From contig CALMZQ010000020.1 of the NCBI GenBank assembly GCA_937870915.1, forward strand, positions 14,843-78,842: DNA of 64,000 nt. Reading direction: 5' to 3'. This document shows positions 1,721 to 31,943 of this stretch, in pieces (positions within the stretch are counted from its first letter, which is position 1; every line of letters starts with the position of its first letter). Under the pieces are notes generated by a model, which made no database searches, was not told the origin of the DNA, and saw only the letters and a program-made list of their open reading frames with translations. A program made the position numbers and the translations under genes. The stretch comes from an uncultured Ignavibacteria bacterium (GTDB taxonomy: Bacteria > Bacteroidota > Ignavibacteria > Kapaibacteriales > Kapaibacteriaceae).

Positions 1721-2985
1721 ACTGCTTTTGCTGCGATATCTGAGCGATGCGTTTTTCCCGCGAAGGAGATCTTTGCGCAGGCTTCATACGAACGACGAAC
1801 AGCATTGGCAAGTGTATCGGCAGTTGCCGTTACGCCCAACACCCTTCCCCCATTTGTCACCAACACATTGTCTTTCATCGAAGTCCCTGCATGAAAGACC
1901 GTTACGTGCGGATCAGCCTCTGCTTCGTCGATTCCGGAGATGGGGAGCCCCTTTGCATACTCATCCGGATATCCACCTGATGCTAGGACCACATTACACG
2001 CGTACCCCATGGCCACGGTTGTAATTGTTGATGCATCGATACTGCCACGAGCAGCTGATGCGAATAGAGCGGCAACATCAGCATTGAGTACGCTCATCAC
2101 AACTTGTGTTTCCGGGTCGCCGAAACGTGCATTGAATTCCACAACATTCACATCATCACCATCGATCATCAGTCCAACGAACAGGCATCCGATAAAGGGG
2201 CTTCCCCCTTCCCGCATACCATCAAGGACGGGTTTCACTATCCGTGTACGTACAGTAGCAAGGATTTCCGGGGTTACGATCGGAGCCGGAGCATAGGCAC
2301 CCATTCCGCCTGTGTTCTTGCCGGTATCGCCATCACCAATGCGCTTATGGTCTTGTGCAGGGGCAAGGAGGACAAAGTCTCGTCCGTCACACACAGCAAA
2401 CACACTTGCTTCTTCGCCGATGAGAAAGCCTTCAATCACAACACCATCAGATCCGAATGCACCATCGAACATATCATTCACGGCAATGAGTGCTTCATCG
2501 CGGGTGGAGGCAACAACAACACCCTTACCAGCTGCGAGTCCGTCGTACTTGATAACTACGGGCAACGTATGGATGCGCACGTGGTCCAAGGCTGCTGCAC
2601 GTTCCGTTGGTGTGAACCTACGGTAAGGGGCTGTTGGAATGTGATGTTTGAGCATGAAGTCCTTGGAGAATCCCTTGGACCATTCGAGTTGGGCAGCAGA
2701 TTTTGAGGGGCCGAACACATCAATGTTCTCTTCGCGCAGGAAGTCGGCCAAACCTTCTGACAGTGGCTGTTCGGGACCGATCACCACCAGCGATACATCG
2801 TTTTTCAGACAGAACTTCGCAACCGCTCCGTGGTCTGCAACATTCAGCTGCACACATTCCGCTTCCCGTTCGATACCCGGATTCCCCGGTGCTGCCCAGA
2901 GTTTATCACATGACGTAGATGCGACGAGTGCCTTTGCTAGGGCATGTTCCCGTCCACCCGAACCGATAAGTAAGATGCGTTCCAT
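1717..2985 (-). CDS. purD: phosphoribosylamine--glycine ligase
   Basis: ILLIGSGGREHALAKAL N-terminus and an ATP-grasp body typical of PurD. Start moved from ATG 3012 to ATG 2985 (MERILLIGSGG...) because an exact TACCTTTG box lies 5 nt upstream. Confidence 0.9.
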   Translation of the reverse strand: MERILLIGSGGREHALAKALVASTSCDKLWAAPGNPGIEREAECVQLNVADHGAVAKFCLKNDVSLVVIGPEQPLSEGLADFLREENIDVFGPSKSAAQLEWSKGFSKDFMLKHHIPTAPYRRFTPTERAAALDHVRIHTLPVVIKYDGLAAGKGVVVASTRDEALIAVNDMFDGAFGSDGVVIEGFLIGEEASVFAVCDGRDFVLLAPAQDHKRIGDGDTGKNTGGMGAYAPAPIVTPEILATVRTRIVKPVLDGMREGGSPFIGCLFVGLMIDGDDVNVVEFNARFGDPETQVVMSVLNADVAALFASAARGSIDASTITTVAMGYACNVVLASGGYPDEYAKGLPISGIDEAEADPHVTVFHAGTSMKDNVLVTNGGRVLGVTATADTLANAVRRSYEACAKISFAGKTHRSDIAAKAV

Positions 2986-2990
2986 GAGTG

Positions 2991-2998
2991 CAAAGGTA
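2991..2998 (-). promoter_or_regulatory. Bacteroidetes-type -7 promoter box (TACCTTTG) 5 nt upstream of purD ATG
   Basis: Plus strand reads caaaggta, the reverse complement of TACCTTTG. It is one of six TAnnTTTG-N4-6-ATG cases in the window. Confidence 0.5.
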
Positions 2999-3010
2999 CG
3001 GAGGAATAAC

Positions 3011-3240
3011 ATCGGGCTTTAGCCCGATGACGGAATGACGGAATGACGGAATGACGGTATGACGGAATGACGGTATGACGTCGGGCTTTAGCCCGATGTG
3101 ACCTCACTCGCTTCGCTCGTAGTGACGAAATGACCTCACTCGCTTTGCTCGTAATGACGAAATGACGTAATGACGTAATGACGATATGACTAATCGTCAC
3201 TTTGTCATTGCGTCATTCCGTCATTTCGTCATTGCGTCAT
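3011..3240. repeat. composite intergenic repeat block: two TCGGGCTTTAGCCCGA palindromes, ATGACGGW octamer array, two 32-nt units, then inverted CGTCAT octamers
   Basis: Palindromes sit at 3011-3028 and 3081-3096 and bracket 6.75 copies of ATGACGG(A/T) (3027-3080). Tandem 32-nt units lie at 3100-3131 and 3132-3163. NATGACGN octamers run to 3192, then six NNCGTCAT octamers in opposite polarity occupy 3193-3240. Confidence 0.9.
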
Positions 3241-3273
3241 TGGCTTCATTGGCTTCATCAGCTCATCCCCCGT

Positions 3274-3304
3274 CCCCTTCTCTCACGCTTCGCTAGAGAA
3301 GGGG
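3274..3304. other. 10-bp perfect-stem hairpin (CCCCTTCTCT / AGAGAAGGGG) with 11-nt loop CACGCTTCGCT
   Basis: Direct base pairing 3274-3283 with 3295-3304. The loop shares CGCTTCGCT with the adjacent 32-nt repeat units. No T-tract follows, so it is not a classic terminator. Confidence 0.6.
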
Positions 3305-3475
3305 TGCCGGTTCGTGTGTGCGAGTGATGGGTCAAAACGTCCTCTTGTCATACTCGTCGTAGCGTGGTGGTGTCATCACCCTTCAAGAACATGGGGGTTA
3401 ACACTATTTTCACCCTGCATAGTATGCGATTAATGGCGATACTGTATGGTTCGCCCGTGCAATCATTTATACTAC

Positions 3476-5947
3476 ATGAGAACCCTAAGCCTACTGTCCT
3501 CGTCTGCTGTTCTCAGCGTTGTTGCTTTTCTTGTTCTTACGTCGTGTGAACGAGATAGAAGTTCTTTGCCGTACAGGTCATCTGGTTTCGTCGCAGATAG
3601 AGCAGATTCGATTCGCTTGTGGGATACAGACCGGCGTGGTTTGCCGGAACAGGTGCTTTCGTTGACGGATTCTCTCCTTGCTGGCCTCGACTCCATTCCT
3701 GCCGGCGAGCAGTACACGTATGCACTCTACATCCGCGGTAAGAGCTTATTCAAACTAGGAGCGTACGAAGAGTCAATCCAGACAATGGGTCGTGTTGTAC
3801 AAAGGGGCTCTCCAAACACTGAGATGATTCGCAATGCACGGCTGTTTGCTGCGCACGGCCTTCGTGCATGTAATGACACCCTTGGTGCATTGGCACTCTA
3901 TCGAGCATGTCTTCGATACTCATCGGTGATCGAAGCCTCACGCAATGCAGATGCGCTTGCCAACATCGCTATGATCGAGCGTTGGCTCGGAAGGAAGGAC
4001 TCGGCGGTCATACATGCACAAATAGCTAGATCGAGTTTTGAGAGTGTTGGAGACACCAGTGGCGTTGAGTGGACCGAACGTATCATACGTGGCGTGGCCC
4101 ACAACACTCTTCCTCATCCTCGTCAGCCTGTAACCATCCGACGTCTCCCTGCCATTCGCTCGGAGTCTATCTACCCTCATCCCGATCTGGTAATGGACAT
4201 CGTTGTTGATGGCAATGGCATGAAGTGGATGGCAACACTCTTGGGTCTGGTTCGAGACCTAGGGTTTGGCGTTGAGTGGCCACAGGCAGAAGGCGTTGAG
4301 GTTACACAGGCTTTCACCGATCTCATTCGAGAGACCGACTCCACGATACTGGCTAAGGCCATCGGTGGGGGTTGGATCCGGGTCCATGTTGAACAAATGG
4401 GGGTCTCAGAATGCCCGCCTCCACGCAAACCCTCGACACGAATCAACGCGGATGTCCCTTCTTCTCTCGTCAATGACCTTGGTGGAACTGTGCGAACCAA
4501 GACCGATCTTCCTCCTACAATCGATGCCAACCTCGTGACGAGAGTCCTGATGCAGGATGACAGCACATCCGTTATTTGCCTGAGAGACCGCGGTGCACTT
4601 CTTTGGGAACACCACACGAACAAGATCGATCGGATCTTCTCCTATGGAGAGGCTTGGACTGCTGGAATTCTCGACGTGCGGGATGTCTTTCGAGGTCAAG
4701 ACAGATGGGGAGCATTGTCGGTACGCGGAATAGCATGGGAACGTCTCACGCGGAAGAATAACCGCACCACGCTTTCCAACACCTACCGAGATGGAAGTGC
4801 GATACATGCCTACCGATTTCATCGTATAGGTGCTTCACTTACGATCATCGAATGTGATGACCACAAGTCCTTGCTCATCGATTCGACCGTGATTCGTATT
4901 CCGGCCAAGGGGATCGACACATCGATGCGATGGCCGGATCGCTCTTGGATGATCTCCGGTATACGGAAGAATGATTCTGTGCTCTCTGTATCAATCGGTC
5001 TAGATGGTGGATCACTGCCTGAGTTCACTGCAGAAGCGCTCAGGTTCAGCCCCTTGACAGCCAACGACGTTGCATGGCATCCAATACAATACGCGATCGA
5101 TGATCAACAGTGGAGACCGCTGGAAGCCAACGGATGGGTGAACTTACGGGACCTCGATTTTGGAACACACATCGTCGGTATTCAGTGGGCAGACGGTTCC
5201 GCCACAACCTTCATCCCTGTGTTCTCCTCCACTCGTTGGTGGGCAACATGGTGGGGGCGCATTTCGCTGACCATTGCATTTGCGCTGTTCGTTACCGTGC
5301 TCGTGTGGTTCGTTATGAGACGCAGAATGAACCTCCGACTTGAACAACAGCAACGGATACACGATGAGCGAGACCGAATATCACGCGACCTTCATGATCA
5401 CGTAGGTAGTCAGCTTGCGAGAATGTCCACGATCGCCTCTCGGATAGAAAAGAGCTCTGATCCGATCGATCGCGATGTTCTACTGAAGAGGTTGCAACAG
5501 TCATCCCGTGAGGCAACGCGGAGTTTACGTGACGTCCTGACGATCTCTCAGGGAGGGACATCAACCTTACAGGACGTTATCGCTGTACTGCGAGAACGCT
5601 TACGTGAGCTTGCTGGAGATGTCCAGGTTTCGTTTTTGTTCGATATTGACAACCAGATCCACAAACAGCTATCGGGCGAACAACGGCACCACCTTGTGAT
5701 GTTCGTAATGGAGGCTGTGACCAATGCTGTCCGTCATGGCGAGTCCGCAGCGATCTCCATGATCCTGCAACAGCAGAACAACCGAACAGAGCTCCTGTTG
5801 GTTGATGACGGCAGCGGGCGAACCGCTCAGGATCGGATCGGTCTAGGTACCGCTACCATGGAGCATCGTGCCGCAATTCTCGGTGCTACGGTCACGTGGG
5901 AGCCAGGTACCCAGGGCGGCACGGTGGTACGATTGGTGTGGCGATGA
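3476..5947 (+). CDS. sensor histidine kinase (TPR-like and beta-rich/Y_Y_Y-like extracytoplasmic region, HisKA_3 + HATPase_c)
   Basis: Signal/lipobox-like N-terminus MRTLSLLSSSAVLSVVAFLVLTSC and a TM helix WWGRISLTIAFALFVTVLVWFVM. H-box RISRDLHDHVGSQL (HisKA_3), N-box EAVTNAVRHG, and DDGSG. Start chosen at ATG 3476 rather than 3446. Confidence 0.85.
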   Translation: MRTLSLLSSSAVLSVVAFLVLTSCERDRSSLPYRSSGFVADRADSIRLWDTDRRGLPEQVLSLTDSLLAGLDSIPAGEQYTYALYIRGKSLFKLGAYEESIQTMGRVVQRGSPNTEMIRNARLFAAHGLRACNDTLGALALYRACLRYSSVIEASRNADALANIAMIERWLGRKDSAVIHAQIARSSFESVGDTSGVEWTERIIRGVAHNTLPHPRQPVTIRRLPAIRSESIYPHPDLVMDIVVDGNGMKWMATLLGLVRDLGFGVEWPQAEGVEVTQAFTDLIRETDSTILAKAIGGGWIRVHVEQMGVSECPPPRKPSTRINADVPSSLVNDLGGTVRTKTDLPPTIDANLVTRVLMQDDSTSVICLRDRGALLWEHHTNKIDRIFSYGEAWTAGILDVRDVFRGQDRWGALSVRGIAWERLTRKNNRTTLSNTYRDGSAIHAYRFHRIGASLTIIECDDHKSLLIDSTVIRIPAKGIDTSMRWPDRSWMISGIRKNDSVLSVSIGLDGGSLPEFTAEALRFSPLTANDVAWHPIQYAIDDQQWRPLEANGWVNLRDLDFGTHIVGIQWADGSATTFIPVFSSTRWWATWWGRISLTIAFALFVTVLVWFVMRRRMNLRLEQQQRIHDERDRISRDLHDHVGSQLARMSTIASRIEKSSDPIDRDVLLKRLQQSSREATRSLRDVLTISQGGTSTLQDVIAVLRERLRELAGDVQVSFLFDIDNQIHKQLSGEQRHHLVMFVMEAVTNAVRHGESAAISMILQQQNNRTELLLVDDGSGRTAQDRIGLGTATMEHRAAILGATVTWEPGTQGGTVVRLVWR

Positions 5948-5969
5948 CACCTGCCCCGTATCTTATGCC

Positions 5970-6599
5970 GTGACAGAACCAATCTCCGTTGGGATCCTTG
6001 AGGACGATAGTGAGTTTCGTGATTTCATTGCGACACTCATAGCAGCAGATGGTCGTACCTCTCTCTTGTGGACGGCATCTACGAGTGCCAAGGCAATGGC
6101 GCGCGCGCTTGACCAACCTCCGCGAGTGATCCTCGTTGATCTCGGTTTGCCGGACCTTACAGGAGATCGGTTCATTCTCACGATCAAGGAACGCCTTCCC
6201 AACACAGACTATCTCGTCATCAGCGTGTTTGAAGACTATGATCGGATCTACCGCGCACTGTGCGCCGGAGCATCGGGCTACCTTGCGAAGTCGCACTTAG
6301 ATGATCAGCTCGTTGATCAGATCATTGATCTGAGCAACGGAGGCAGCCCAATGAGCAGCCCCATCGCACGCAAGGTGGTCAACACCTTCACTACTCGTGC
6401 CACTGAACCAAACGGCCTAGACGGTCTAACGCGACGAGAACAGGACATTGTCCACCAGCTCGCCCTTGGCAGATCATACCAAGAGATCGCAGACAATGTC
6501 CTTCTCAGCGTCGAAACCGTTCGAAGTCACATCCGCAACATCTACCGCAAACTAGAGGTCCACTCACGGGCAGAGATCATGAAGTTGATGAAGAAATGA
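5970..6599 (+). CDS. two-component response regulator, NarL/LuxR family
   Basis: Receiver domain (ISVGILEDD..., VDLGLPD) plus a C-terminal GerE/LuxR HTH (LTRREQDIVHQLALGRSYQEIADNVLLSVETVRSHIRNIYRKLEV). ATG 5868 would overlap the kinase gene by 80 nt. In-frame GTG 5970 lies 22 nt after the kinase stop and is preferred. Confidence 0.8.
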   Translation: MTEPISVGILEDDSEFRDFIATLIAADGRTSLLWTASTSAKAMARALDQPPRVILVDLGLPDLTGDRFILTIKERLPNTDYLVISVFEDYDRIYRALCAGASGYLAKSHLDDQLVDQIIDLSNGGSPMSSPIARKVVNTFTTRATEPNGLDGLTRREQDIVHQLALGRSYQEIADNVLLSVETVRSHIRNIYRKLEVHSRAEIMKLMKK

Positions 6600-6620
6600 A
6601 CGAAGAAATGACCAAGTGAC

Positions 6621-6920
6621 CTAGGGACGCAATGACATCTTTCTGCTCCTGAAGTAATCCGTCAGAAGGCATGCTAGTCCCGTTGGTACAACGACTAATA
6701 CTGTTGGATTTGCATTGCAAGCCCCCGCGAAATCCAGCTCTAGAACTCGCACAAGTGCCGTTGTGAGACCACAGCCCGGACACTCCCAACCAAACACTGC
6801 CTTCCAAAGACAAGGAATACATACATCAACGTCTAGCAAGCGTTTGATGATCACCGACAACACAATGTATCCGCCAACGAAACTCGCAAGGCGCATGGAT
6901 CGAAGGCAGTATCGGATCAT
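6621..6920 (-). CDS. DUF2752-like small membrane protein
   Basis: CIPCLWKAVFGWECPGCGLTTA motif typical of DUF2752, plus hydrophobic helices. ATG 6920 or GTG 6929 could be the start. Confidence 0.6.
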   Translation of the reverse strand: MIRYCLRSMRLASFVGGYIVLSVIIKRLLDVDVCIPCLWKAVFGWECPGCGLTTALVRVLELDFAGACNANPTVLVVVPTGLACLLTDYFRSRKMSLRP

Positions 6921-6928
6921 GATAAGCA

Positions 6929-7333
6929 CTAGCGAACCTGCATGATCAATCTCTGAAGTATCTCAACGTTAGCCTCCTCAGCTCGCTTCTTGGCCTTTGT
7001 CATCTCTATGATCCACCATACCCAACATCCACCACCCGTAACCAGCATCAGGATGCCAAGACCAGCCTTGCCTACGTAGAAGAGTGAGAATCCAAATATT
7101 GCCAAGATCAAAGCAGTTTGTTCACTCTTCTTTTCTGATTGCCACATGCTATACACCTGTTGCTGCTTTTCCTCGGGAAGACCATCAAAGGCGGCTTTCA
7201 CTGCGAAGGGAATGTCGATGTAGCTCACGGTCTTTCCTTTATAGTAGTTGATTGTTTCAATAAATCGCGGGTCATTCTTTCGAACAACGGATCGATGCTC
7301 CACTAGCTGAGAGTGTAACATATCTCCCATCAC
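6929..7333 (-). CDS. TM2-domain-like membrane protein
   Basis: C-terminal half ALILAIFGFSLFYVGKAGLGILMLVTGGGCWVWWIIE resembles the TM2 two-helix motif. The start is uncertain because it overlaps the upstream gene by 50-60 nt. Confidence 0.5.
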   Translation of the reverse strand: MMGDMLHSQLVEHRSVVRKNDPRFIETINYYKGKTVSYIDIPFAVKAAFDGLPEEKQQQVYSMWQSEKKSEQTALILAIFGFSLFYVGKAGLGILMLVTGGGCWVWWIIEMTKAKKRAEEANVEILQRLIMQVR

Positions 7334-7676
7334 AGTCGCCGATCTTCATACCAGATACATCTATGAGATCTTCACCAGCAATGGTACCAGACAATGACTC
7401 CTTGACCTCATCCCAGTCGTCAAGCCCCTCGCAAGTCCATCGATTTCCTCTTATCCGGACGACATACTTATACAACCCACTTCCAACGTATTTGCCATCA
7501 AGGACCTTCTTTTCTTCTTGGACTACGGCTTTGGGGGTGTCTGTTGAATCAGCATTAGCCCCTGCTTTGGACTTATCACAGCCGACACTCGAGAAAAAGA
7601 ACAAGAAGCTCAAAGAACTGATTCCAATCCATTTTCCAAGGATTGGATAAAGGCTTGGATAGTCAACACTCTTCAT
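7272..7676 (-). CDS. hypothetical lipoprotein
   Basis: From ATG 7676: MKSVDYPSLYPILGKWIGISSLSFLFFFSSVGC, with a lipobox (SVGC). No recognisable family. Confidence 0.5.
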   Translation of the reverse strand: MKSVDYPSLYPILGKWIGISSLSFLFFFSSVGCDKSKAGANADSTDTPKAVVQEEKKVLDGKYVGSGLYKYVVRIRGNRWTCEGLDDWDEVKESLSGTIAGEDLIDVSGMKIGDCDGRYVTLSASGASIRCSKE

Positions 7677-7829
7677 TTCTGTCTCCAAATGGTTGTTGTT
7701 GCTCAACATGATATCGGCATGGCCCTCGATCAATCGAGTTCCTTCATGATCTGAACGCAGTTGGGCTGCATCCTTCTTGATATACCTCCACACAATGCTT
7801 GTCTTTGTATTGATTTGGCATCAACCAGA

Positions 7830-8276
7830 TCACTTGGGTTCCCATTTGTATATGGCTCCCGTTGCCAACTCGATTGCAATCACTTCACCATCACGATGCT
7901 TGATCAGTCCGTCTCCTTTAGGATGTACAGCTTCATCCCAATCAGAGAAGATGATTCGCCCACGCTCTGCATCCACCCTATACTTTCCAGTCGACGCAAA
8001 TTTCATCGTTCCGGCTTGGCTAACCCAGATAACCGAACCATCCTTCTTGAACTTGAACATTGCTGCTACACCATCCTTTTCATAGTAGTACATCCCACCA
8101 TCAGTACCCTCCGCATGAATATCGAGGGTCGGTTTTGATGCAGATGTTGCGGATGCGTCAGGTGACGCTCCAGATCTCTTAGATAGTCCACCTATTACAC
8201 TCATAGCCACAACAATGATCACAGCAATTCCCCACCACTTCTTATACCAGGCCTTCTGCTTGGCTACCTCTTCCAT
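7830..8276 (-). CDS. hypothetical membrane-anchored protein
   Basis: N-terminal TM anchor (WWGIAVIIVVAMSVIGGL) and a small beta-rich C-terminal domain. An AAGGAGG Shine-Dalgarno-like sequence lies 5 nt upstream of the ATG. Confidence 0.55.
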   Translation of the reverse strand: MEEVAKQKAWYKKWWGIAVIIVVAMSVIGGLSKRSGASPDASATSASKPTLDIHAEGTDGGMYYYEKDGVAAMFKFKKDGSVIWVSQAGTMKFASTGKYRVDAERGRIIFSDWDEAVHPKGDGLIKHRDGEVIAIELATGAIYKWEPK

Positions 8277-8388
8277 AACGTCCTCCTTGTTTCCCGTTTG
8301 CGAAATCAGTACGATGTAAACATGCGGTATCTAGATCCCCTGTGAAATGTGAATAAAGTGGGTGACCATCAGCACGAGGTTGCTTTGC

Positions 8389-8396
8389 TACATTTG
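8389..8396 (+). promoter_or_regulatory. -7 promoter box TACATTTG, 4 nt upstream of ATG 8401
   Basis: Exact TAnnTTTG at fixed short spacing from the start codon. Confidence 0.5.
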
Positions 8397-8400
8397 TCTC

Positions 8401-9858
8401 ATGAACCTCAGTCGCACCCGCCTCTGCATTTGCTCTTGCTTCGCGCTTGTAATGTGTGTTCCTGGCCTGCCCCTTATCGCTACCACATTGAACGTTGGTG
8501 CAGGCAAGACCTATCCAACGATCCAGTCGGCCATCATCCAGGCACAGCCGGGCGATACGGTGCTGATCCATCCCGGGACGTACACCACGTCGACGTATAT
8601 CGTTGAGAAGAACGGCACGTTTGGTGTCGATATCGTGATCAGGGGTGTATCCCAAACATCCGTGATCATCGAAGGTCCTTCATCCTCAATGCAGTTCGTT
8701 GATTGTTCTCACATTACCGTTGAGAACCTCACGATGCGGGGACAGAAAGGCAATGCCTTGTTCTTTGATGATGGGGGCACCATCGAAACTCCTTCGCGAT
8801 ACATCACTGTCCGCAACATTGTGTTTGAGGATATGGAGGGGGCGAGCAATGTGAACACGAACTTCCTGAAGATGGCAGGTGTAGACAACTTCTTTATCAG
8901 TAGGTGTACATTCAGTAGAGGCCCCGTGAATAGTCTAGGGATCGATCTTGTAGGATGTCATGACGGTTACATCTATGGGTGCGATTTGCAAGGGACAATT
9001 TCTGGAGGTATACAGGCAAAGGGTGGATCACAATTCATCGATATCTATAACAACACCTTTGTTGATTGTGGGGACCGCGCTATCAACATTGGCGGCAATA
9101 CCGGACTCCCCTTCTTCCGTCCAGCAGATGCAACGTTTGAGGCATCAAATATCAACGTCTACACAAACACCTTTGTGGGTTGTCGTGCGGCCATCGCCTT
9201 TGCCGGTGCCGTGAATTCTGAGGTAATAAACAACACCATCGTCGACCCATCAGCTTGGCCCTTTCGTATTCTTCAAGAGAGCGTAGATGCCTCGCGATTT
9301 GAGCCGTGCGGCAACAACATCATTCAGAACAACATCATCGTCTTTCGAAACACATTGAATGCACACTTCAATGTTGGACCCAACACCGCGCCCGAGACCT
9401 TCACTGTTTCGCACAACCTCTGGTACAACTCCGATGTGCCGTCGCGTTCCAACGAAAACATCGCCCCTGTGAACGAGACAATGTCTTTATACGGAGAAGA
9501 CCCACTGTTCACTGCCTCACCAACCGACCTAACGATCAGCTCCATAAGTCCAGCGGTTGGTAAGGGGCTCAGCACCACTCTACCATCGCGCGACAAACGC
9601 AACAAACGTTATGCATCGCCCCCTAGCATCGGAGCATATGAGGGGGCAACCACAACAAGCGTGTTTGAGAACGGCACGACCGAACATCGATCCATCACAC
9701 GCACCACCACCGGCTTCATCGTCCGACTCCCGAACGATGGTCAACGAAGATCATGCGCGCTCTACGACCTACGCGGCCGACTACTCCGTCGATTCGAGCT
9801 TGATGGCGGTGAACATCACGTGCCGGCAGGTTTGCAGGAGTTCTTGGTGGTGGAGTAA
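8401..9858 (+). CDS. secreted right-handed parallel beta-helix (pectin-lyase-fold) protein with T9SS C-terminal sorting domain
   Basis: Signal peptide MNLSRTRLCICSCFALVMCVPG and an N-terminus GAGKTYPTIQSAIIQAQPGDTVLIHPGTY. Repeated NxxF/I beta-helix turns. C-terminal about 70 aa (..RSCALYDLRGRLLRRFELDGGEHHVPAGLQEFLVVE) look like a T9SS CTD. Confidence 0.7.
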   Translation: MNLSRTRLCICSCFALVMCVPGLPLIATTLNVGAGKTYPTIQSAIIQAQPGDTVLIHPGTYTTSTYIVEKNGTFGVDIVIRGVSQTSVIIEGPSSSMQFVDCSHITVENLTMRGQKGNALFFDDGGTIETPSRYITVRNIVFEDMEGASNVNTNFLKMAGVDNFFISRCTFSRGPVNSLGIDLVGCHDGYIYGCDLQGTISGGIQAKGGSQFIDIYNNTFVDCGDRAINIGGNTGLPFFRPADATFEASNINVYTNTFVGCRAAIAFAGAVNSEVINNTIVDPSAWPFRILQESVDASRFEPCGNNIIQNNIIVFRNTLNAHFNVGPNTAPETFTVSHNLWYNSDVPSRSNENIAPVNETMSLYGEDPLFTASPTDLTISSISPAVGKGLSTTLPSRDKRNKRYASPPSIGAYEGATTTSVFENGTTEHRSITRTTTGFIVRLPNDGQRRSCALYDLRGRLLRRFELDGGEHHVPAGLQEFLVVE

Positions 9859-9874
9859 CTCGTATCTTTTCTAC

Positions 9875-9985
9875 ATGCAAAAACACCACACGTTGGTCTT
9901 CGTGGCCGTGATCTGTGTACTTCTCGGGTGTGAACCCGATATCATGATGTATCAGAATCTACGAACGTTGCAGACGCGGATATGA
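9875..9985 (+). CDS. candidate 36-aa mini-lipoprotein (MQKHHTLVFVAVICVLLGCEPDIMMYQNLRTLQTRI)
   Basis: ATG 9875 lies within ORF 9557..9985. Textbook lipobox (VLLGC). A one-mismatch -7 box, TATCTTTT, sits 4 nt upstream. The ORF is very short and has no homology support. Confidence 0.3.
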   Translation: MQKHHTLVFVAVICVLLGCEPDIMMYQNLRTLQTRI

Positions 9986-10013
9986 TCGACAAGGGTCTGT
10001 TCTCTATTCTCTG

Positions 10014-10075
10014 TTCGCTATTCGCTATTCGCTATTCGCTATTCGCTATTCGCTATTCGCTATTCGCTATTCGCC
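10014..10075. repeat. perfect heptamer microsatellite (TTCGCTA) x8 plus a partial unit
   Basis: Counted directly: units start at 10014, 10021, ... 10063, followed by TTCGCC. The array supplies the stop codon and last codons of the minus-strand gene ending at 10053. Confidence 0.95.
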
Positions 10076-10883
10076 CCCTCCAATACACCTTCCTTCCTTC
10101 CTCCAGGATCCACGCTACTTCACCTTCTCCTGGCACGAGCATGCCGTTCATTCGGATGTAGTTCTTCCATCTTCCTTCCCATGGTGTGGGGACAACGGTG
10201 CCGTTGACTTCCCGGCCGCGGTCTTCTGCTCTGATGCTGCTCATGAGTCCGTCTGGGCCGAACGTTGAGGTGAGAGTTGCAGTGAGCTCCCCTGTTGTGA
10301 AGGTCACACGGGCGGAGGTGTCGGTAAGGGGCTGCCATAACGCCCCCTGACTCGGCAACATGGCGGTGGGATACCACGCGGTCTCGGCACACCACCGTAG
10401 ATACTCTCCGTAGTCGAAGGCACTGCCCGATTGTTCCATCATGGTGATGAGTCCGATCACTGAGGCGTGAAGGAGCCCCCTACCGTCAACAAATGCATCA
10501 TGGACGTGTGCCTTGATGCCGGGGAACATGGCGATCCGCGCGTCCCAGAGAAAACCGGGCTCGCGTGTGGAGATGTATTGCTTTGAGGTGAATGGTACCC
10601 ACTTGTCTTGCGACATGTCCATCTCTCCTTCATGCTCGAGGTAGACCTCGCGAATGATCGGCTGTCCAGGCACGAGAACCAATCGCAGATATCGTTGCAC
10701 ACACGACGGAAGACCATCAAGCTCGTGCGGATCATACGTAGCGGGAATGGGGCTCTGCATTGCACCATAGAGCTGCGATCGCAACGATTCTGTACGCGTT
10801 GCCCATCGCCAGTATCCACATATGTAGACGATGCCGATGATGAGAGCAGCAACACAAACGATGATGAGTATGATCCTAAGCAT
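10053..10883 (-). CDS. hypothetical membrane-anchored protein
   Basis: From ATG 10883: MLRIILIIVCVAALIIGIVYICGYW (TM anchor), then a globular domain of about 250 aa. No family named with confidence. The ORF track starts at TTG 10916. Confidence 0.55.
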   Translation of the reverse strand: MLRIILIIVCVAALIIGIVYICGYWRWATRTESLRSQLYGAMQSPIPATYDPHELDGLPSCVQRYLRLVLVPGQPIIREVYLEHEGEMDMSQDKWVPFTSKQYISTREPGFLWDARIAMFPGIKAHVHDAFVDGRGLLHASVIGLITMMEQSGSAFDYGEYLRWCAETAWYPTAMLPSQGALWQPLTDTSARVTFTTGELTATLTSTFGPDGLMSSIRAEDRGREVNGTVVPTPWEGRWKNYIRMNGMLVPGEGEVAWILEEGRKVYWRGRIANSE

Positions 10884-10979
10884 AAGGTCTCTCAATGGCT
10901 GGTCACTATTGCGCAACGTAGTAGCACGAATCTATCTCTCCCCCTGAAGAATGTCTATGACGTTTGTCACGTTGCCTCA

Positions 10980-11064
10980 TCCCTCGACTCCGCTCGGGAT
11001 GACGCTGTGCCTCTTCGCCCTTTCGCCTCTTCGCCTAGTCCCTCGACTCCGCTCGGGATGACGC
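10980..11064. repeat. two identical 26-nt direct repeats (TCCCTCGACTCCGCTCGGGATGACGC) separated by a CTCTTCGCC-type mini-array
   Basis: Copies at 10980-11005 and 11039-11064. The spacer contains cctcttcgcc / ctttcgcc / tcttcgcc. Confidence 0.85.
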
Positions 11065-11268
11065 CACTAAGTCATTTCTTCTATTCTTCGTTTCGACGAA
11101 AGAGTAAAATTCAACAATCTCACAAGCATCGCAGCTACCAGCGGCACCTATAGATCAGACAAGTTTACTCCACTGACGTATGAAGTTTGCGAACTCAGGC
11201 TCGCTCTTGTCAACCTCTTCATGGGTGCTCGAAGGTTCTTAGATATTGGTCTACTTCATTGGGTTGGG

Positions 11269-11673
11269 TCATGGTTCAGTCCCTAGCGGACAATACACGT
11301 CGATCCTCACACCAAAGGGATCGTCAACACAAGAAAAACGCATGCGATCATACATCGTTGTGTCACGCGGAGTCATTCCCGCGGTTGCTCCTGCAGCTAT
11401 GAGGGCATCATACAAGGCATCTACTTCTGAAGGAACAGAGACCTCAATGGCAAACTCGGTATTACAAGGATTTCGATCTGTCGCTGTTCCGGCACTGCTC
11501 GGGAACATGGTTAGCCATGTTGAGCCCATCTTCCAGCCATAGAGAACCTCGTTCTCTTCCGTGTATTGGTGCGGACCAAACACTGTGGTATAGAATGCTA
11601 CGGCTGCTTCGATGTCCCGCATATAGAGCGAAACAAAACTCAGACCTTTGATCGTAAATGGTATTGGTGACAT
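11269..11673 (-). CDS. VOC family protein (glyoxalase/bleomycin-resistance fold)
   Basis: FVSLYMRDIEAAVAFYTTVFGP N-terminal motif, and about 130 aa in size, typical of VOC proteins. Confidence 0.7.
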   Translation of the reverse strand: MSPIPFTIKGLSFVSLYMRDIEAAVAFYTTVFGPHQYTEENEVLYGWKMGSTWLTMFPSSAGTATDRNPCNTEFAIEVSVPSEVDALYDALIAAGATAGMTPRDTTMYDRMRFSCVDDPFGVRIDVYCPLGTEP

Positions 11674-11948
11674 ACAGGGGTGTTTTCAGTATGGAATAAC
11701 TTTTTTAAGAGGAAGAGAGGTACAGACCCTCTCGAGGATACGCCGAGAAGGTTGAACTAGCTTCCGATCTAAACCTCGGCAGACAACATACGATCTGCTC
11801 ACCGGTTTCGCTCACATCGATGGTCTCCAACTAACCGACGTTTGCGAAAAGGCCTGATGACCACCATCTGCGCACTTTCGCACCATGTCTATAATGCTCC
11901 AACGAATCAACGAGGCTAGTCTTGGTATCCGCAAGACTTTGCTGACTT

Positions 11949-12008
11949 GGCGTTGACGCCAGGGAACATGTATATCCGTGCGTCAAAGATGAAGCTTCGG
12001 ACTTGACC
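11949..12008 (-). pseudogene. decayed fragment paralogous to the 10053..10883 gene
   Basis: The minus-strand reading RSFIFDARIYMFPGVNA aligns with PGFLWDARIAMFPGIKA of the 10053..10883 protein. About 16/18 nt are identical over ttgaYgccRgggaacatg. The reading frame breaks immediately on both sides. Confidence 0.4.
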
Positions 12009-12011
12009 GCG

Positions 12012-12407
12012 TCATGCCGTCACAAGTGCGACAACAAGAGTACACGCTAACATCACGAGCAGCACCGGAACCCACAATCGTCTCTCGGGTTTGCTCTTGG
12101 AGATGGAGTTTAAACCAAGTCCAAGGGCCATGTAGGTAACGGGCAGCCAGATGGCGATACGAGACGGTTCAAGGAGGTCCGGCCGCATGAAGCCGGCACG
12201 GGTGAGGACGATCGCAGCAAAGAGTGCAAGGATCACCGTTGAGAGTACAGGGATCAATCGTGCCTTTACCGGGAGAACATCTGGGTACTTGCCACCTAAG
12301 GTGAATTTGCCCCACGGGGCTCCTAGGCCAAGTGCGATCTGAAAGCCGATGGTGAAGGCGGAGAGAACTACAAAGGTGATGGCAGATAGTGATACAATGT
12401 CAGACAT
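12012..12407 (-). CDS. hypothetical four-helix membrane protein
   Basis: 131 aa, almost entirely hydrophobic helices. Confidence 0.55.
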   Translation of the reverse strand: MSDIVSLSAITFVVLSAFTIGFQIALGLGAPWGKFTLGGKYPDVLPVKARLIPVLSTVILALFAAIVLTRAGFMRPDLLEPSRIAIWLPVTYMALGLGLNSISKSKPERRLWVPVLLVMLACTLVVALVTA

Positions 12408-12443
12408 ATATGCTCCGGTGACAAATAATGGTTGTAATCGTAT

Positions 12444-13412
12444 TCAACGTGGTGCTTCTCGGTCATACTGTAATCCGTGACCGCCGTGCTCGCCCCCTAC
12501 ACCTATGATATCTGCACAGGACAACCAGATCGTATTGTCATTTACGAATTCGACATGAAGGCTGTTTGGCGACTCACCGTAGTGGCATTGGAATATGAGT
12601 GTGTTGGCCGAACTGTGCTCTAGAGTATACACCGCCGGTAGATCATGGTTCCATCCGCGACGTTGCAACGTGAGTGTCCACACCGATCCCAACTTCTCGA
12701 TAATGAGTGAGTTGTTCACATAGGACTTGAGGTCTCCTGCGGGAATCGTCAGCGACCCTTCAAACCGGTTCTTGTGCTTCTTTACAAGGCGCAAGTGCAA
12801 CTCCGTAGTATCAAACTTCCACCTCCCAAGTAAACGCTCTATTGGTGGACGCGGATCAGTAGGAGCTGGCAGTTCCGTAGCGAAATGCCCCTTCTCGTCG
12901 TTCTTCACATTGGTATAGGCGTAGGCATGTAACGGTATCCGCCGGTACTTCACACTAAATGTGCGTTCCTTCCCCGACACCGTTACGACTATTGAGTCGG
13001 GTGTAATGAACACATATTCGATCTTCTGCGGGAATTCATGTGCAGCATTCTCAAAACACATAGCTCGCTGTGTTGCCATGGTGCAGGTAAAGGCTATTGG
13101 CCGACCATTATTTTGACGCAACACTGCTGCCGAATACGTCAACTGCCCGTCTCTATATGAGATTGTAAGATCTTCATCCTTTCGAATACCAATACCTACG
13201 GCAGTACCGCTCCACCCCAACATAGATCCGTCCGGCATTGTTCGCCATGCCTCGATCTGTGTCGTGAGTATCGATGGTCTTCTTCCGGCAACGTCTGTTC
13301 GCCATCGCCCTTCCAATCGATGGATGAGGGACAACGTAGCAGTACTATCTTGAGCGCGTACGTCCGAACTCAGGAGTAATATGAGCACGATGAACATCGA
13401 ACTCATAGACAT
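12444..13412 (-). CDS. secreted protein with two lipocalin-like (DUF6265-like) halves
   Basis: Signal peptide MSMSSMFIVLILLLSSDVRAQ. Two halves each open with L(E/L)GRW(R/K). The first contains FENAAHEFPQKIEYVF, which I recall from DUF6265, so the family name is tentative. Confidence 0.5.
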   Translation of the reverse strand: MSMSSMFIVLILLLSSDVRAQDSTATLSLIHRLEGRWRTDVAGRRPSILTTQIEAWRTMPDGSMLGWSGTAVGIGIRKDEDLTISYRDGQLTYSAAVLRQNNGRPIAFTCTMATQRAMCFENAAHEFPQKIEYVFITPDSIVVTVSGKERTFSVKYRRIPLHAYAYTNVKNDEKGHFATELPAPTDPRPPIERLLGRWKFDTTELHLRLVKKHKNRFEGSLTIPAGDLKSYVNNSLIIEKLGSVWTLTLQRRGWNHDLPAVYTLEHSSANTLIFQCHYGESPNSLHVEFVNDNTIWLSCADIIGVGGEHGGHGLQYDREAPR

Positions 13413-13416
13413 GATT

Positions 13417-13770
13417 CTACTTCGTTTGACGCTCAACACAATACTTCACGATGTTCTTCACCAAGGACTTTGGCAAGGGGCTTTCCACTGCAAATCGAAT
13501 GGTTCCCTTACTTGTTGAATATGCTTCAAGTTCCGAAGCAAATGCCTCTACCGGTCCTGCCCCGGGAAAAAGCGAACAATGGTTCTTTGCTGCAGCGAAA
13601 TGTATGAGGTTCTTCCCGTTCAGTTTAAAGGTCGGCACGCCATAGTTGATACACTCAACGGCATTCGGCACAAGAGAACGTATGGTTGCACGCAGGTCTT
13701 CTAGAACCGCGCGTTTGTCCGGGTCGACGCTTGCCAGGTATTGGTCGATGGTGGTAGCTTTGGTTTCCAT
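13417..13770 (-). CDS. DUF1801 (YdhG-like) domain protein
   Basis: IDQYLASVDPDKRAVLEDLRATIRSLVPNAVECINYGVPTFKLNGKNLIHFAA matches the DUF1801 pattern. Confidence 0.7.
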   Translation of the reverse strand: METKATTIDQYLASVDPDKRAVLEDLRATIRSLVPNAVECINYGVPTFKLNGKNLIHFAAAKNHCSLFPGAGPVEAFASELEAYSTSKGTIRFAVESPLPKSLVKNIVKYCVERQTK

Positions 13771-13790
13771 TCCACGATAATAACAACCCC

Positions 13791-14252
13791 ATGATCACCA
13801 ATCCAGAGATCGTCGATATGGAAGAACAGGTGACGGCTTCCGTCCATCTTATTGTACCCATGCGCGAGATGTCGGAGCATATGGATCCCGCTATCGAAGA
13901 GCTCTATGGGATGCTTGCAACTCAGGGAGTAGAGCCTACCGGACCGCTCTTCTCGTATCATCATCGTATACCAACGGATACCTTCGACTTCGAGATCGGC
14001 GTACCAGTTTCCGGTGCGTTTCAGGAAACCGGACGCGTCAAGGTAAGTCTCCTGCCAGCCTGTAGCGTCGTGCGCTCAGTTTATCAAGGACCCTACGAAA
14101 GCCTAGGCCAGGGATGGAGAGAATTCAAGACGGCCGTTGATGAAGGGGGCTTCCCTGTCAGCTCAACGTTCTGGGAACGATATGTGGTTGGTCCGGCCGA
14201 CACGCAAGACCCGGCACAATACCAAACCGAACTCAATTGTGTTCTACGCTGA
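13791..14252 (+). CDS. GyrI-like small-molecule-binding domain protein
   Basis: 153 aa. The pattern (VHLIVPMREMSEHM..., GPLFSYHH..., FEIGVPVSG, ..ERYVVGP) is typical of AraC-effector/GyrI-like domains. Confidence 0.6.
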   Translation: MITNPEIVDMEEQVTASVHLIVPMREMSEHMDPAIEELYGMLATQGVEPTGPLFSYHHRIPTDTFDFEIGVPVSGAFQETGRVKVSLLPACSVVRSVYQGPYESLGQGWREFKTAVDEGGFPVSSTFWERYVVGPADTQDPAQYQTELNCVLR

Positions 14253-14263
14253 TCGATCAAATG

Positions 14264-14542
14264 TTATCGGTCTTCCCTGCCATACCATACTCGAAGTATG
14301 TTAATGGTTTGATCGAGTATGAGATATCGAACAACGTATGAGCCAATGACGATCTCTCGTAACTCTAACGCTATAGGTGATGACACAAGTCGGGACCCTA
14401 GTCGTGGAAATTCCTCGAGATTCGCAACACGCTCGATCAATTCTTCGATGATACTGCTGTAACTCTCGGAATAGTGCTCAATGAGAAAAATCCGGATACG
14501 CTCTAAATCAACGACTGCCTCGTGGGTGTAGACGCATTTCAC
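14264..14542 (-). CDS. type II toxin, ParE/RelE family
   Basis: 92 aa, ending ..YVVRYLILDQTINILRVWYGREDR. It overlaps the upstream RHH gene by 4 nt (14539-14542). Confidence 0.75.
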   Translation of the reverse strand: MKCVYTHEAVVDLERIRIFLIEHYSESYSSIIEELIERVANLEEFPRLGSRLVSSPIALELREIVIGSYVVRYLILDQTINILRVWYGREDR

Positions 14543-14811
14543 CTGGAATCTCTAGGCAAGAGCGTCCCTGAATCACTAGCGCCACTTCTAAGCCATGCAT
14601 GTACATCTTCAGCAGGCACCACTCGACCATTAGAAACGGATTCCAATGCTTCGCGCGTTTGCTCCCATCGATGCCTTTCGGTCGCAGCATGGCCCAGAAA
14701 CTCGCGAAGTGCTTGAATAATGATCCAGCTCTTGCTTCGATCCAACTCGCTCGCAAGAAGAGCCAATTTTGCATCAAGATCAGAATCAAGACGAACACTT
14801 GTAGTAGGCAT
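14539..14811 (-). CDS. ribbon-helix-helix (CopG/ParD-like) antitoxin
   Basis: N-terminal RHH: MPTTSVRLDSDLDAKLALLASELDRSKSWIIIQALREFL. It lies upstream of, and is translationally coupled to, the ParE-like gene. Confidence 0.75.
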   Translation of the reverse strand: MPTTSVRLDSDLDAKLALLASELDRSKSWIIIQALREFLGHAATERHRWEQTREALESVSNGRVVPAEDVHAWLRSGASDSGTLLPRDSR

Positions 14812-14843
14812 GAAGATTCCTTGGAAAAACGACTACAACTGAA

Positions 14844-14862
14844 TACAATGTAATACAATGTA
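14844..14862. promoter_or_regulatory. candidate antitoxin operator: two tandem TACAaTGTA palindromes spaced 10 bp apart
   Basis: aTACAATGTAaTACAATGTAg at 14844-14852 and 14854-14862, 33-51 nt upstream of the antitoxin ATG (14811). Confidence 0.5.
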
Positions 14863-14928
14863 GTCAAATGTGTTCCACTGAGAAATGACCGCGCCGCTCC
14901 GTATCTCTGTACTGACCCACATACCAAC

Positions 14929-15049
14929 GCGCTTAGAAAGGCGCTTGTAGAAAGCGCTTACAAAGCCGCTTACAAAGCCCCTTGAAAAAGGCGCTTGCAG
15001 AAGGCGCTTGAAAAGCCGCTTGCAGAAGGCGCTTAAAAAGCCTTAAAAC
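14929..15049. repeat. about 10 degenerate 11-14-nt tandem units (GCGCTTRNAGAAR) rich in AAGCGCTT-type mini-palindromes
   Basis: gcgcttagaaag gcgcttgtagaaa gcgcttacaaa gccgcttacaaa ... gcgcttaaaaa. The array overlaps the stop codon of the DUF3127 gene (15043-15045). Confidence 0.8.
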
Positions 15050-15420
15050 GGCACATCATCAAAATCATCCTTCGCGCCTGCGCTTGCCGGAGTGATCTGA
15101 CTGTAATCTGCACCTGTAGGTGTGGCTGTACCAGTTGCCGGCTCAATGCGCCATGCTTCGAGGTTTGTGAAGTAGACGGTTTGGCCTTCACGGTTTTGGA
15201 AGGGGCGACCCCGCAAGTTGAAGAGAACCTTCACCTGCTGACCAACCTTGAAGTTGTCGAGCAAGGCACAACGGTCCTGCGTCACCTGAAACTTGATATG
15301 CTGCGGATAGTTGCCATCCTGCATCTCGATTACAAATTCACGCTTCTTGAAGGTGTCTTTCACCTGCTGCGTGTCCATCACGACGTGCATCGTGCCAACG
15401 GCTTCGAATGAGTTTGCCAT
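15043..15420 (-). CDS. DUF3127 domain protein
   Basis: FKKREFVIEMQDGNYPQHIKFQVTQDRCALLDNFKVGQQVKVLFNLRGRPFQNREGQTVYFTNLEAWRIE matches my recollection of DUF3127 (OB-like), a family common in Bacteroidota. Confidence 0.65.
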   Translation of the reverse strand: MANSFEAVGTMHVVMDTQQVKDTFKKREFVIEMQDGNYPQHIKFQVTQDRCALLDNFKVGQQVKVLFNLRGRPFQNREGQTVYFTNLEAWRIEPATGTATPTGADYSQITPASAGAKDDFDDVPF

Positions 15421-15458
15421 ATTCGTTCTTTCGTTCCTTAGTTACAGAGATACAGAGT

Positions 15459-15561
15459 TACGGAGTTACGTACATCGGGCTTCAGCCCTGTGTTACGGAG
15501 TTACGGAATTACTAGCGTCGGGCTCTAGCCCGATGTTACTAGCGTCGGGCTAAAGCCCGAC
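15459..15561. repeat. GTTACGGA octamers interleaved with three REP-like palindromes TCGGGCTnnAGCCCGA
   Basis: Palindromes at 15475-15488 (degenerate), 15508-15523 and 15545-15560. GTTACGGA-type units lie at 15459-15470 and 15492-15507. The last palindrome encodes the final alaS codons and its stop. Confidence 0.85.
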
Positions 15562-18069: not shown

Positions 18070-18100
18070 GATGCCGGTGTGATACGGAGAAACGAAACCA

Positions 18101-18108
18101 CAAAAGTA
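18101..18108 (-). promoter_or_regulatory. possible -7 box TACTTTTG, 31 nt upstream of alaS ATG
   Basis: Exact TAnnTTTG on the minus strand. At this distance a chance match cannot be excluded. Confidence 0.3.
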
Positions 18109-18196
18109 CGGCAGAGAAAGGTCTTTGTAGGGGGCAGGTTATCAACTGCTTTCCAGCCCCCCTCTCGATTACCTAAGCTCACCCCCCCAACCTTGA

Positions 18197-18315
18197 ATGT
18201 AATGACGTAGTGACCTAGTGACGAAATGACGATCTGTCGTTTCGTCATACCGTCATTACGAGCGTAGCCAGTAAGGTCATTTCGTCATTACGAGCGTAGC
18301 GAGTAAAGTCATTTC
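18197..18315. repeat. ATGAC/GTCAT octamer block with polarity switch, followed by two tandem 32-nt units
   Basis: The 32-nt units at 18252-18283 and 18284-18315 differ from each other at 2 positions. After rotation they are 28/32 identical to the reverse complement of the 3132-3163 unit. Confidence 0.9.
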
Positions 18316-24290: not shown

Positions 24291-24386
24291 AATGACGGAA
24301 TGACGGGATGACGGAATGCCGAAATGACGGAATGACGGGATGACAGAGTGACGGAGTGACGGAATGACGGAATGACGGAATGACGG
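24291..24386. repeat. 12 tandem octamers (R)ATGACGG between the TPR-LuxR stop and the Rhs start
   Basis: Counted units: aatgacgg x2, gatgacgg, aatgccga, aatgacgg x2, gatgacag, agtgacgg x2, aatgacgg x3. Confidence 0.95.
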
Positions 24387-24400
24387 AAGAATATGCAGGG

Positions 24401-28523: not shown

Positions 28524-28527
28524 CCGT

Positions 28528-28599: not shown

Positions 28600-28610
28600 G
28601 AACTTTGGAA

Positions 28611-28634: not shown

Positions 28635-28639
28635 TGAGC

Positions 28640-31898: not shown

Positions 31899-31943
31899 AC
31901 TGCTGGGATTAGTTACAACTATCGATCCCTCTCTCTGTACCTC

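Follow-up and report, generated by a model that had tools for sequence, protein, structure and literature searches.

Positions 3011-3240 of the 64,000-nucleotide stretch analyzed here (the window, taken from contig CALMZQ010000020.1) fall in the spacer between the divergent genes purD and a sensor kinase, in a Candidatus Kapaibacterium-like metagenome-assembled genome (MAG), a 3.32-Mb draft in 233 contigs. We consider it probable that this region is a mosaic of slippage-driven arrays of 7- and 8-nt units, palindromes of the repetitive extragenic palindrome (REP) type associated with a REP-associated tyrosine transposase (RAYT), and a dispersed hairpin repeat, all tolerated by the genome and filtered by selection on position and orientation. 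Comparison with relatives shows that the arrays arise as pure insertions in formerly tiny spacers, and that they gain and lose whole units.

A preliminary description of the sequence had treated the composite as an element shared by two divergent promoter regions 15 kb apart, the purD spacer (locus A) and the spacer between alaS and a methyltransferase gene (locus B). On direct inspection every building block that it listed is present at the coordinates given, and the opposed octamer runs are predicted to fold into long hairpins at both. However, the element is not special to these two regions: its 32-nt unit occurs at about 12 loci, and arrays are depleted between divergent genes.

Genome-wide arrays and their placement

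We scanned the genome with Tandem Repeats Finder (TRF), with a first-order Markov simulation of the same genome as the null model for arrays; relatives were scanned as sampled pieces. The scan, which the preliminary description had proposed, revealed several unit families with biases in position and orientation, and copy-number change in relatives. Merged repeat regions number 1,172 and make up 1.65% of the genome. The distribution of periods is a sharp double peak at 7 and 8 nt, with almost none at 4-6 or 10-11 nt. Among arrays of at least four copies, 153 have period 7 and 183 have period 8, compared with none in the simulated genome, and chance is excluded as their origin. Of 377 arrays, 327 belong to four main unit families: GAATAGC/GAACAGC (F1), AGTTACN(N) (F2), ATGACGNN (F3), and TAGAGTGC-like units (F4). 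All four fit the pattern A-R-T-N-N-N-N(-N), and by sequence they look related; AGTTACGG and AATGACGG, for example, differ at two positions. Copy numbers are spread over 3-23, and the units contain no G-tracts. Long hairpins are found in only 19 of 355 array regions, leaving ~95% without one.

For location we counted period-7/8 arrays of at least three copies, and we measured occupancy among spacers longer than 60 nt. Intergenic DNA holds 350 of the 398 arrays (88%) in a genome that is ~92% coding. Arrays are carried by 45% of convergent, 21% of tandem, and 13% of divergent spacers. Those in tandem spacers begin a median of 5.5 nt after the stop codon of the upstream gene, and a median of 54 nt separates them from the next start. 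The enrichment in convergent spacers and the closeness to stop codons indicate that arrays favor gene ends; the two divergent spacers considered at the outset are therefore atypical, and a promoter reading does not generalize. Arrays are present in 12 of the 26 window spacers in this length class, in agreement with the earlier estimate of about half.

A 7/8-nt array lies within 300 nt of 38 of the 466 contig ends, compared with 3.1% of random 300-nt windows, a 2.6-fold enrichment. Because arrays are enriched at contig ends and break the assembly, array counts are lower bounds.

Components of the mosaic and their turnover

We refer to the present genome as G000 and to relatives from the same genus as G001, G007, G008, G022, G023, and G024. 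Locus A contains the following features, in window coordinates.

3010-3029, no strand: REP-like palindrome 1, CATCGGGCTTTAGCCCGATG (CATCGGGC-TTTA-GCCCGATG), at the same position in G008 and G024
3027-3082, plus strand: seven ATGACGGN octamers, family F3 in forward orientation, between the palindrome copies
3079-3098, no strand: REP-like palindrome 2 (CGTCGGGC-TTTA-GCCCGATG), with one mismatch relative to palindrome 1
3099-3166, plus strand: 32-nt higher-order unit, 2.1 copies
3153-3194, plus strand: forward arm of the long hairpin, made of ATGACGNN octamers
3195-3258, minus strand: NNCGTCAT octamers, the reverse arm (3195-3242), decaying into three GGCTTCATT 9-mers by the hairpin element
3259-3317, plus strand: interspersed hairpin element, stem 3274-3283 with 3295-3304, loop CACGCTTCGCT

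The switches of octamer polarity noted previously lie at about 3194/3195 in locus A and around the loop at 18233-18235 in locus B. The opposed runs of locus A have a predicted stem of ~40 bp at -62.1 kcal/mol (z -11.3, with none of 200 shuffles as good), and the predicted hairpin of locus B has a z of -5.0. The locus A hairpin (3150-3237) does not have the form of an intrinsic terminator: the genes on either side of it are divergent, and the sequence after it is GGCTTCATTGGC, not a T-run. A search of 2900-3500 against Rfam gave only subthreshold, spurious matches to miRNA precursors, which are due to the long hairpin. By Pfam, the genes flanking locus A are GARS (purD) and a HisKA_3 kinase, and those flanking locus B are alaS and a Methyltransf_32 protein.

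Palindromes of this kind are dispersed in G000, with 27 copies under strict matching (25 of them intergenic) and 32 under looser matching. Their stems occur as compensatory variants, CGTCGGGC/GCCCGACG, CATCGGGC/GCCCGATG, and CCTCGGGC/GCCCGAGG. The genome also encodes a 137-aa Y1 (IS200-like) transposase (G000:C16:8568-8981; Pfam Y1_Tnp, 5.8e-28), and on both sides of its gene, at 8515-8535 and 8990-9010, lie palindromes that have the core GGGCTTTAGCCC / GGGCT(A/T)(A/T)AGCCC. Judged from the sequence, a Y1 gene between core-sharing palindromes is the classical RAYT/REP arrangement. G000 thus has the features by which REP/RAYT systems are recognized, namely multicopy, short, intergenic, imperfect palindromes and a Y1 gene flanked by palindromes with the REP core. 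The outer stem of the flanking palindromes (CCCAGGGC) is unlike that of the dispersed copies (CGTCGGGC or CATCGGGC). The surrounding region, C16:8500-9120, contains CCCAGGGCT(A/T)(A/T)AGCCCTGGG palindromes and adjoining tandem 12/13-nt units, GTGAAGCCCTGG and GTCAGCGCCCTGG, that repeat one palindrome arm.

These results bear on the class to which the composite was first assigned. It had been likened to the short tandemly repeated repetitive (STRR) sequences of cyanobacteria and set apart both from clustered regularly interspaced short palindromic repeats (CRISPR) and from REP and bacterial interspersed mosaic elements (BIME). The likeness to STRR stands, as does the distinction from CRISPR, since the 7-, 8-, or 32-nt units are directly adjacent, without spacers. 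The distinction from REP/BIME needs correcting: the palindromes are REP-like and the same core flanks a Y1/RAYT-type gene, so the composite is a BIME-like mosaic as well as an STRR-like one. We rejected the idea that REPs nucleate arrays, as arrays lie within 20 nt of just 5 of the 27 REPs, a weak enrichment over the 10% of random intergenic sites that do. The Y1 transposase was likewise rejected as a correlate of arrays, being found in 28 of 29 genus genomes, with or without arrays.

The hairpin element is 55-60 nt long and occurs in 20-30 copies in G000, with compensatory stem changes. It consists of a left flank (CTCAYCCCCC), a C-rich/G-rich stem, the loop CACGCTTCGCT, and the tail TGCCGGTTCGTG, and it has no match in Rfam. 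About ten copies are clustered inside 12 kb of contig C219 (60000-72000). Each 32-nt unit combines two F3 octamers with a 16-nt piece that resembles this element's loop plus its left arm, and the order hairpin element, octamers, 32-nt units is repeated at C209:23915-24157 and C164:21100-21290. The hairpin element and the 32-nt unit are interspersed, and a mosaic character is seen at the window locus and at other loci. As reported earlier, the unit at 18284-18315 is, after rotation, identical at 28/32 positions to the reverse complement of the unit at 3132-3163. The two window copies are nevertheless not specially alike, with 85% identity to each other versus 85-88% to copies on other contigs.

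Locus B and the remaining arrays of the window are as follows.

10000-10074, minus strand: TTCGCTA heptamer array, family F1 in reverse orientation, overlapping the stop codon of the right-hand gene
15440-15560, plus strand: AGTTACNG octamers broken up by three REP-like palindromes
18178-18188, plus strand: left-flank remnant (CTCACCCCCCC) of a hairpin element that is intact in G008 and G024
18197-18259, no strand: short opposed F3 octamer arms, forward 18197-18232, loop 18233-18235, reverse 18236-18259
18244-18315, minus strand: 32-nt unit, 2.2 copies, in the GTCATTACGAGC reading; three copies in G008, one in G024
24291-24388, plus strand: F3 octamer array AATGACGG, 12 copies, retained in G024 with other unit variants
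28526-28634, no strand: head-to-head pair with heterologous arms, a forward one of TAGAGTGC-type octamers followed by a reverse one of TTCGCTA heptamers
31937-31987, minus strand: GTAACTA heptamer array beside a tRNA-Leu gene, 10 nt from its 3' end
53857-53905, minus strand: six-copy F3 octamer array NNCGTCAT between convergent genes, with a one-unit difference in G008
56105-56192, no strand: head-to-head AGTTACTN / GTAACTN arms in a convergent spacer

The preliminary description was correct in that the octamer family recurs at 24291-24388 and 53857-53905 and leaves a degenerate remnant at ~6597-6640. A separate repeat class with a 12/25-nt period (GCGCTTNNAAAG-type) occupies 14929-15042; its copy pattern is different in G008 and G024.

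Relatives show how these arrays change. In the sister species G008 (91-98% identity), 8/8 alignable window array sites carry an array at the same site, and array differences from G000 are whole-unit indels of 8, 7, 14, 8, and 32 nt. In G024 (5 contigs, ~80% identity), arrays are found at the same sites and in the same orientations, with other variants and other copy numbers. Whole-unit indels at orthologous sites indicate turnover of the slippage type, as in variable number tandem repeats (VNTR). At locus A, G008 lacks the seven-octamer array and palindrome 2 (3030-3098) and has one 32-nt unit versus two in G000. G024 has the same palindrome at purD, followed by a different octamer, GCGAAAGG, which may have grown from GGCGAAAGGGGG, present at that position in G007. 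The forward arm at 18197-18232 is specific to G000; G024 has an intact hairpin element there. At the 53857 site, G024 has an additional AGTTACNN forward arm, and a canonical hairpin-plus-T-run terminator precedes its arrays. The G024 octamer array orthologous to 15440-15560 is uninterrupted and lacks the three REPs.

Array birth can be seen at the spacer at 28524-28639. Its 116 nt are made wholly of arrays, whereas in five relatives the spacer is 1-31 nt long and the start codon is directly beside the stop codon of the neighboring gene. The difference identifies a pure insertion into an operon junction. No target duplication is visible at this one empty site, compared with five relatives. The gene downstream of the insertion (27924-28523, minus strand) has an apparent TTG start here versus ATG in relatives.

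Arrays are distributed sporadically. Of the 29 genomes of the genus, 6 contain the ATGACG octamer pattern; all 16 genomes representing other families of the order lack it. TRF arrays in the sampled pieces number ~10 per 100 kb in G000, G024, G023, and G001 and ~6 in G007 and G022. None were found in six other genus members (samples of 18-60 kb), and of three genomes from outside families two have none and the third has a single array. Unit sequences differ from species to species.

The locus A composite also lies at a variable junction. Between purD and a beta-helix gene (8362-9858), the interval 2986-8361 is a variable island, with 5.3 kb including the sensor kinase and its neighbors in G000, 60 nt in G007, ~2 kb of other DNA in G008, and ~11 kb in G024. 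Its boundary on the purD side is marked by the REP palindrome in G000, G008, and G024. We considered whether 3259-18315 (15 kb) is a mobile or inverted block bounded by inverted composites and rejected this based on synteny with G007, G008, and G024: outside the island, the rest of this interval is collinear. The G008 record DATGWS010000248.1 carries a verrucomicrobial name, "Candidatus Didemnitutus sp.", in its title, yet the PurD encoded there shares 99% identity with the G000 protein; the record is probably mislabeled.

Polarity of the arrays and competing explanations

The arrays are strictly polar in orientation. We defined ATGAC, AGTTAC, GAATAGC, and TAGAGTG as forward, and we treated adjacent arrays at most 60 nt apart as pairs. 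There are 51 head-to-head pairs (forward, then reverse), 0 tail-to-tail, and 6 co-oriented. The arms are homologous in 33 of the 51 and belong to different families in ~18; in 15 of the 51 the gap between abutting arms is 0-7 nt. Single arrays are directed away from the closest open reading frame (ORF): those nearer the left flank are mostly forward (49:15), and those nearer the right flank mostly reverse (58:13; Fisher p = 6e-12). All four families show this polarity. It is seen next to 5' starts (46:10) and also next to 3' ends where the array is clear of the stop codon (54:19). Relatives contribute another eight head-to-head pairs and no tail-to-tail pairs, some at sites orthologous to window sites. 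The apparent exception at 31937-31987 vanishes once the adjacent tRNA-Leu gene is counted. The 32-nt unit also obeys the rule. It had been said to point toward a nearby gene start; its GTCATTACGAGC reading does point to the nearest ORF, but about six loci have a start there and about seven a 3' end, so the earlier remark describes a special case.

Several explanations for the polarity fail. The rule is identical at 5' and 3' flanks, so transcription direction does not explain it, and neither does replication direction. Hairpin formation is not the common denominator, given heterologous arms and the small number of array regions with hairpins. Reverse transcriptase was rejected as the array maker, as only 3 of the 29 genomes of the genus have RVT_1, and G024, G023, G001, and G007, all rich in arrays, lack it. 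Loss of MutL or ExoVII was rejected as a cause: MutL_C is present in 27 of 29 genus genomes, both misses being incomplete assemblies, and Exonuc_VII_L in 29 of 29. Both domains are present in every array-rich genome.

In the mosaic that we favor, replication slippage or unequal exchange would change the number of units while keeping each array homogeneous. REP-like palindromes insert into and beside arrays, probably mobilized by the genome's Y1 (RAYT-type) transposase, and a fragment of the hairpin element would have been fused to two octamers and amplified as the 32-nt unit. Arrays would persist only in places and orientations that do little harm, namely behind genes or in convergent spacers, and always directed away from whichever gene is closest. 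Where arms of the same family meet, long hairpins would result, which may incidentally stop transcription. The strict polarity implies some polar event at one array end, such as growth or erosion of adjacent DNA, and arrays with the active end facing a gene would be eliminated.

A number of points weigh against this interpretation. That the arrays are selfish or neutral by-products, and not dedicated regulators, is a default view rather than a demonstrated one, and their retention at the same sites across ~20% nucleotide divergence could also mean selection for presence. Simple selection acting via codons fails to explain the polarity. A preference for having the strand that bears stop codons face the upstream gene is strong (52:8) only where arrays overlap the stop, which is circular, and is reduced to 27:21 and 23:22 in arrays clear of it. 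Avoidance of start codons also fails, because the AGTTAC family (F2), in which both strands are free of ATG and GTG, has the strongest bias of all beside gene starts (20:2). No tail-to-head decay gradient was found along arrays, and polar growth in the form of tail-to-head unit decay was rejected, both array edges being equally sharp and edge phase uninformative. Finally, genes were called with a crude, home-made codon-usage ORF caller, so start codons are unreliable and tRNA genes were missed.

The arrays could instead be functional polar elements under selection, either transcriptional insulators or terminators or iterated binding sites for a nucleoid or RNA-binding protein, a role we regard as unlikely. 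As insulators, they would be read outward through the forward and then the reverse arm to give a hairpin, and the C-rich untranslated reverse RNA could load Rho. Sites and orientation are indeed kept across three species, arrays abut stop codons and fill convergent spacers, polarity is strict, predicted hairpins are very stable, and most Xanthomonas repeats are transcribed according to Rehm et al. 2015 (PMC4692102). Most congeners, however, do without arrays, none being present in the 18-60-kb samples of six genus members, and units differ between species while copy number drifts freely. Long hairpins are missing from ~95% of array regions, and 18 of 51 pairs have noncomplementary arms. A canonical terminator already precedes the arrays at the 53857 site of G024, and no T-run follows the hairpin at 3150-3237. 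Foldback transposons with inverted arms of tandem subrepeats are known in eukaryotes, and head-to-head pairs might be miniature mobile elements of this type, with single arrays as half-decayed copies, although we find this quite improbable. The fixed arm order is expected of an element with defined ends, the array block at 28524-28639 is a clean insertion, and a short reverse-complement remnant occurs on the head side of 24 single arrays versus the tail side of 5. Three or four GAATAGC hairpins on different contigs also share nearly the same 20-nt loop, GAATCA(A/T)GAAATGTAGATTC, once inverted; those with the shared loop (C3:53459-53564, C158:25735-25841, C212:13276-13408, C209:42296-42498) are the only hint of copies of a common element. 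Opposing these are the 18 heterologous pairs of 51, the uniqueness of most loops, the lack of a target-site duplication at the single empty site compared, and the absence of any linked transposase. Moreover, arms are gained and lost independently on each side, and 0/8 alignable window sites are polymorphic for presence relative to G008, at 91-98% identity.

The head-to-head rule (51:0 in G000, 8:0 in relatives, and also in Xanthomonas/Nostoc) might itself record a hitherto undescribed polar process at bacterial DNA ends, with units added to, or neighboring DNA lost from, just one strand's 3' end, so that arrays would be telomere-like scars and not ordinary slippage products; we give this little credence. 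The fuller version, in which slippage or templated synthesis adds units to each 3' end of a broken spacer before rejoining, giving telomere-like polarity on either side of the junction, strikes us as very improbable. Extension of 3' ends from both flanks predicts the polarity observed, including heterologous arms that abut at 0-7 nt. The array block was inserted without loss of flanking sequence, arrays are present at a synteny-variable junction, and unrelated units in other phyla share the polarity. Yet no enzyme is known for such extension, the reverse transcriptase domain is absent from the four array-rich relatives named above, unit divergence shows no head-tail gradient, unit families common to hundreds of loci would require a shared template, and slippage alone accounts for the copy-number changes seen. 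An artifact of MAG assembly or binning has next to no probability. Arrays do disturb assembly, as their 2.6-fold enrichment near contig ends indicates. However, the same arrays occupy the same sites, between conserved flanks, in independently assembled relatives that include the 5-contig G024, which rules out an assembly artifact. The preliminary description had allowed that arrays might prove absent from the rest of the genome or from other assemblies, or unbiased relative to genes; they are instead genome-wide, present in independent assemblies of relatives, and biased in both position and orientation.

Relation to known repeat classes

Arrays with a 7/8-nt unit were already known in 1990 but still have no accepted origin or function. 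G000 provides a well-resolved case from a new lineage (Kapabacteria), in which sister species allow site-by-site comparison and show array birth as pure insertion, whole-unit turnover, and nesting of REPs. The polarity rule is very clean here, even for arms of different families, and it constrains any mechanism. The practical consequences are broken assemblies, displaced predictions of start and stop codons, and one operon junction that is split.

The heptamers of heterocystous cyanobacteria, reportedly described as STRR by Mazel and colleagues in 1990, are said to have units such as CCCCAGT, TTGGTCA, and CAACAGT. The wider class of long simple sequence repeats (LSSR) has 5-11-nt units, of which heptamers are the most abundant, and polymerase slippage with a footprint of ~7 nt has been proposed for it (Mrazek, Guo & Shah 2007, as presented in PMC4679880). 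We conclude that the G000 arrays are a further case of this known LSSR/STRR-like class. They exceed chance in 7/8-nt arrays, occupy many intergenic loci in several families, and change length by whole units; heptamers are common and distribution is sporadic, as in LSSR/STRR. They fall outside STRR as strictly defined, given a Kapaibacterium-like host and the units ATGACGNN, AGTTACN, GAATAGC, and TAGAGTGC. Other differences from LSSR/STRR are that octamers are as common as heptamers, that arrays form mosaics with REPs and hairpin elements, and that the host is of the Kapabacteria/Ignavibacteria type.

Nor are such arrays new to the Fibrobacteres-Chlorobi-Bacteroidetes (FCB) group, for which the preliminary description was aware of none: MacGregor 2015 (PMC4679880) reported arrays of TAACTGA and other heptamers in Beggiatoaceae, cyanobacteria, and five Bacteroidetes, with 7-nt indels between strains and contigs ending in repeats. 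Our literature search found no description of such arrays for Kapabacteria or Ignavibacteria. The G000 arrays resemble those cases in being heptamer arrays of an FCB-group genome, mixed with other heptamers, with unit-step indels and contigs that end in repeats. The AGTTACTC octamer found here holds TAACTGA on the other strand, and the orientation that TAACTGA has immediately before start codons in BOGUAY, a Beggiatoaceae genome, fits the G000 polarity (MacGregor 2015, PMC4679880). Exact TAACTGA arrays of at least three copies number 0 in G000, and the TAACTGAG octamer occurs six times with at least two copies. Unlike the MacGregor 2015 repeats, G000 arrays favor the 3' ends of genes, not the few nucleotides before start codons.

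The closest match in placement is with the GGGAATC/GGGGAYT repeats of Xanthomonas and Nostoc, which Rehm et al. 2015 (PMC4692102) place "almost exclusively" nearer the 5'-side ORF, whatever its orientation. According to that paper, they are intergenic repeats of no known function that are scarce between divergent ORFs, keep their sites while varying in length, and are for the most part transcribed. The G000 arrays are the same in polarity, in depletion between divergent genes, in forming inverted pairs, and in keeping sites while length varies. They differ in that their units are not G-tract units and in showing no preference for four units, with copies ranging over 3-23. As the G000 units lack G-tracts, a G-quadruplex explanation is inapplicable.

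The palindromic component finds its counterpart in the REP/RAYT (REPIN) and BIME systems of Proteobacteria (PMC3116915), which it resembles in its ~30 intergenic 20-nt palindromes, compensatory stems, palindrome-flanked Y1 gene, and mosaics. Unlike those systems (PMC3116915), copy number is low, the stem flanking the Y1 gene differs, and 7/8-nt arrays replace the linker motifs of BIME. A further difference is that Y1 genes in this genus (28 of 29 genomes) occur with or without arrays. Elhai and colleagues in 2008 reportedly saw tiny hairpin-forming repeats inserted inside heptamer arrays of Nostoc/Anabaena at orthologous sites. The array at 15440-15560, broken by three palindromes that are absent in G024, resembles that case, in a host and with sequences unrelated to it.

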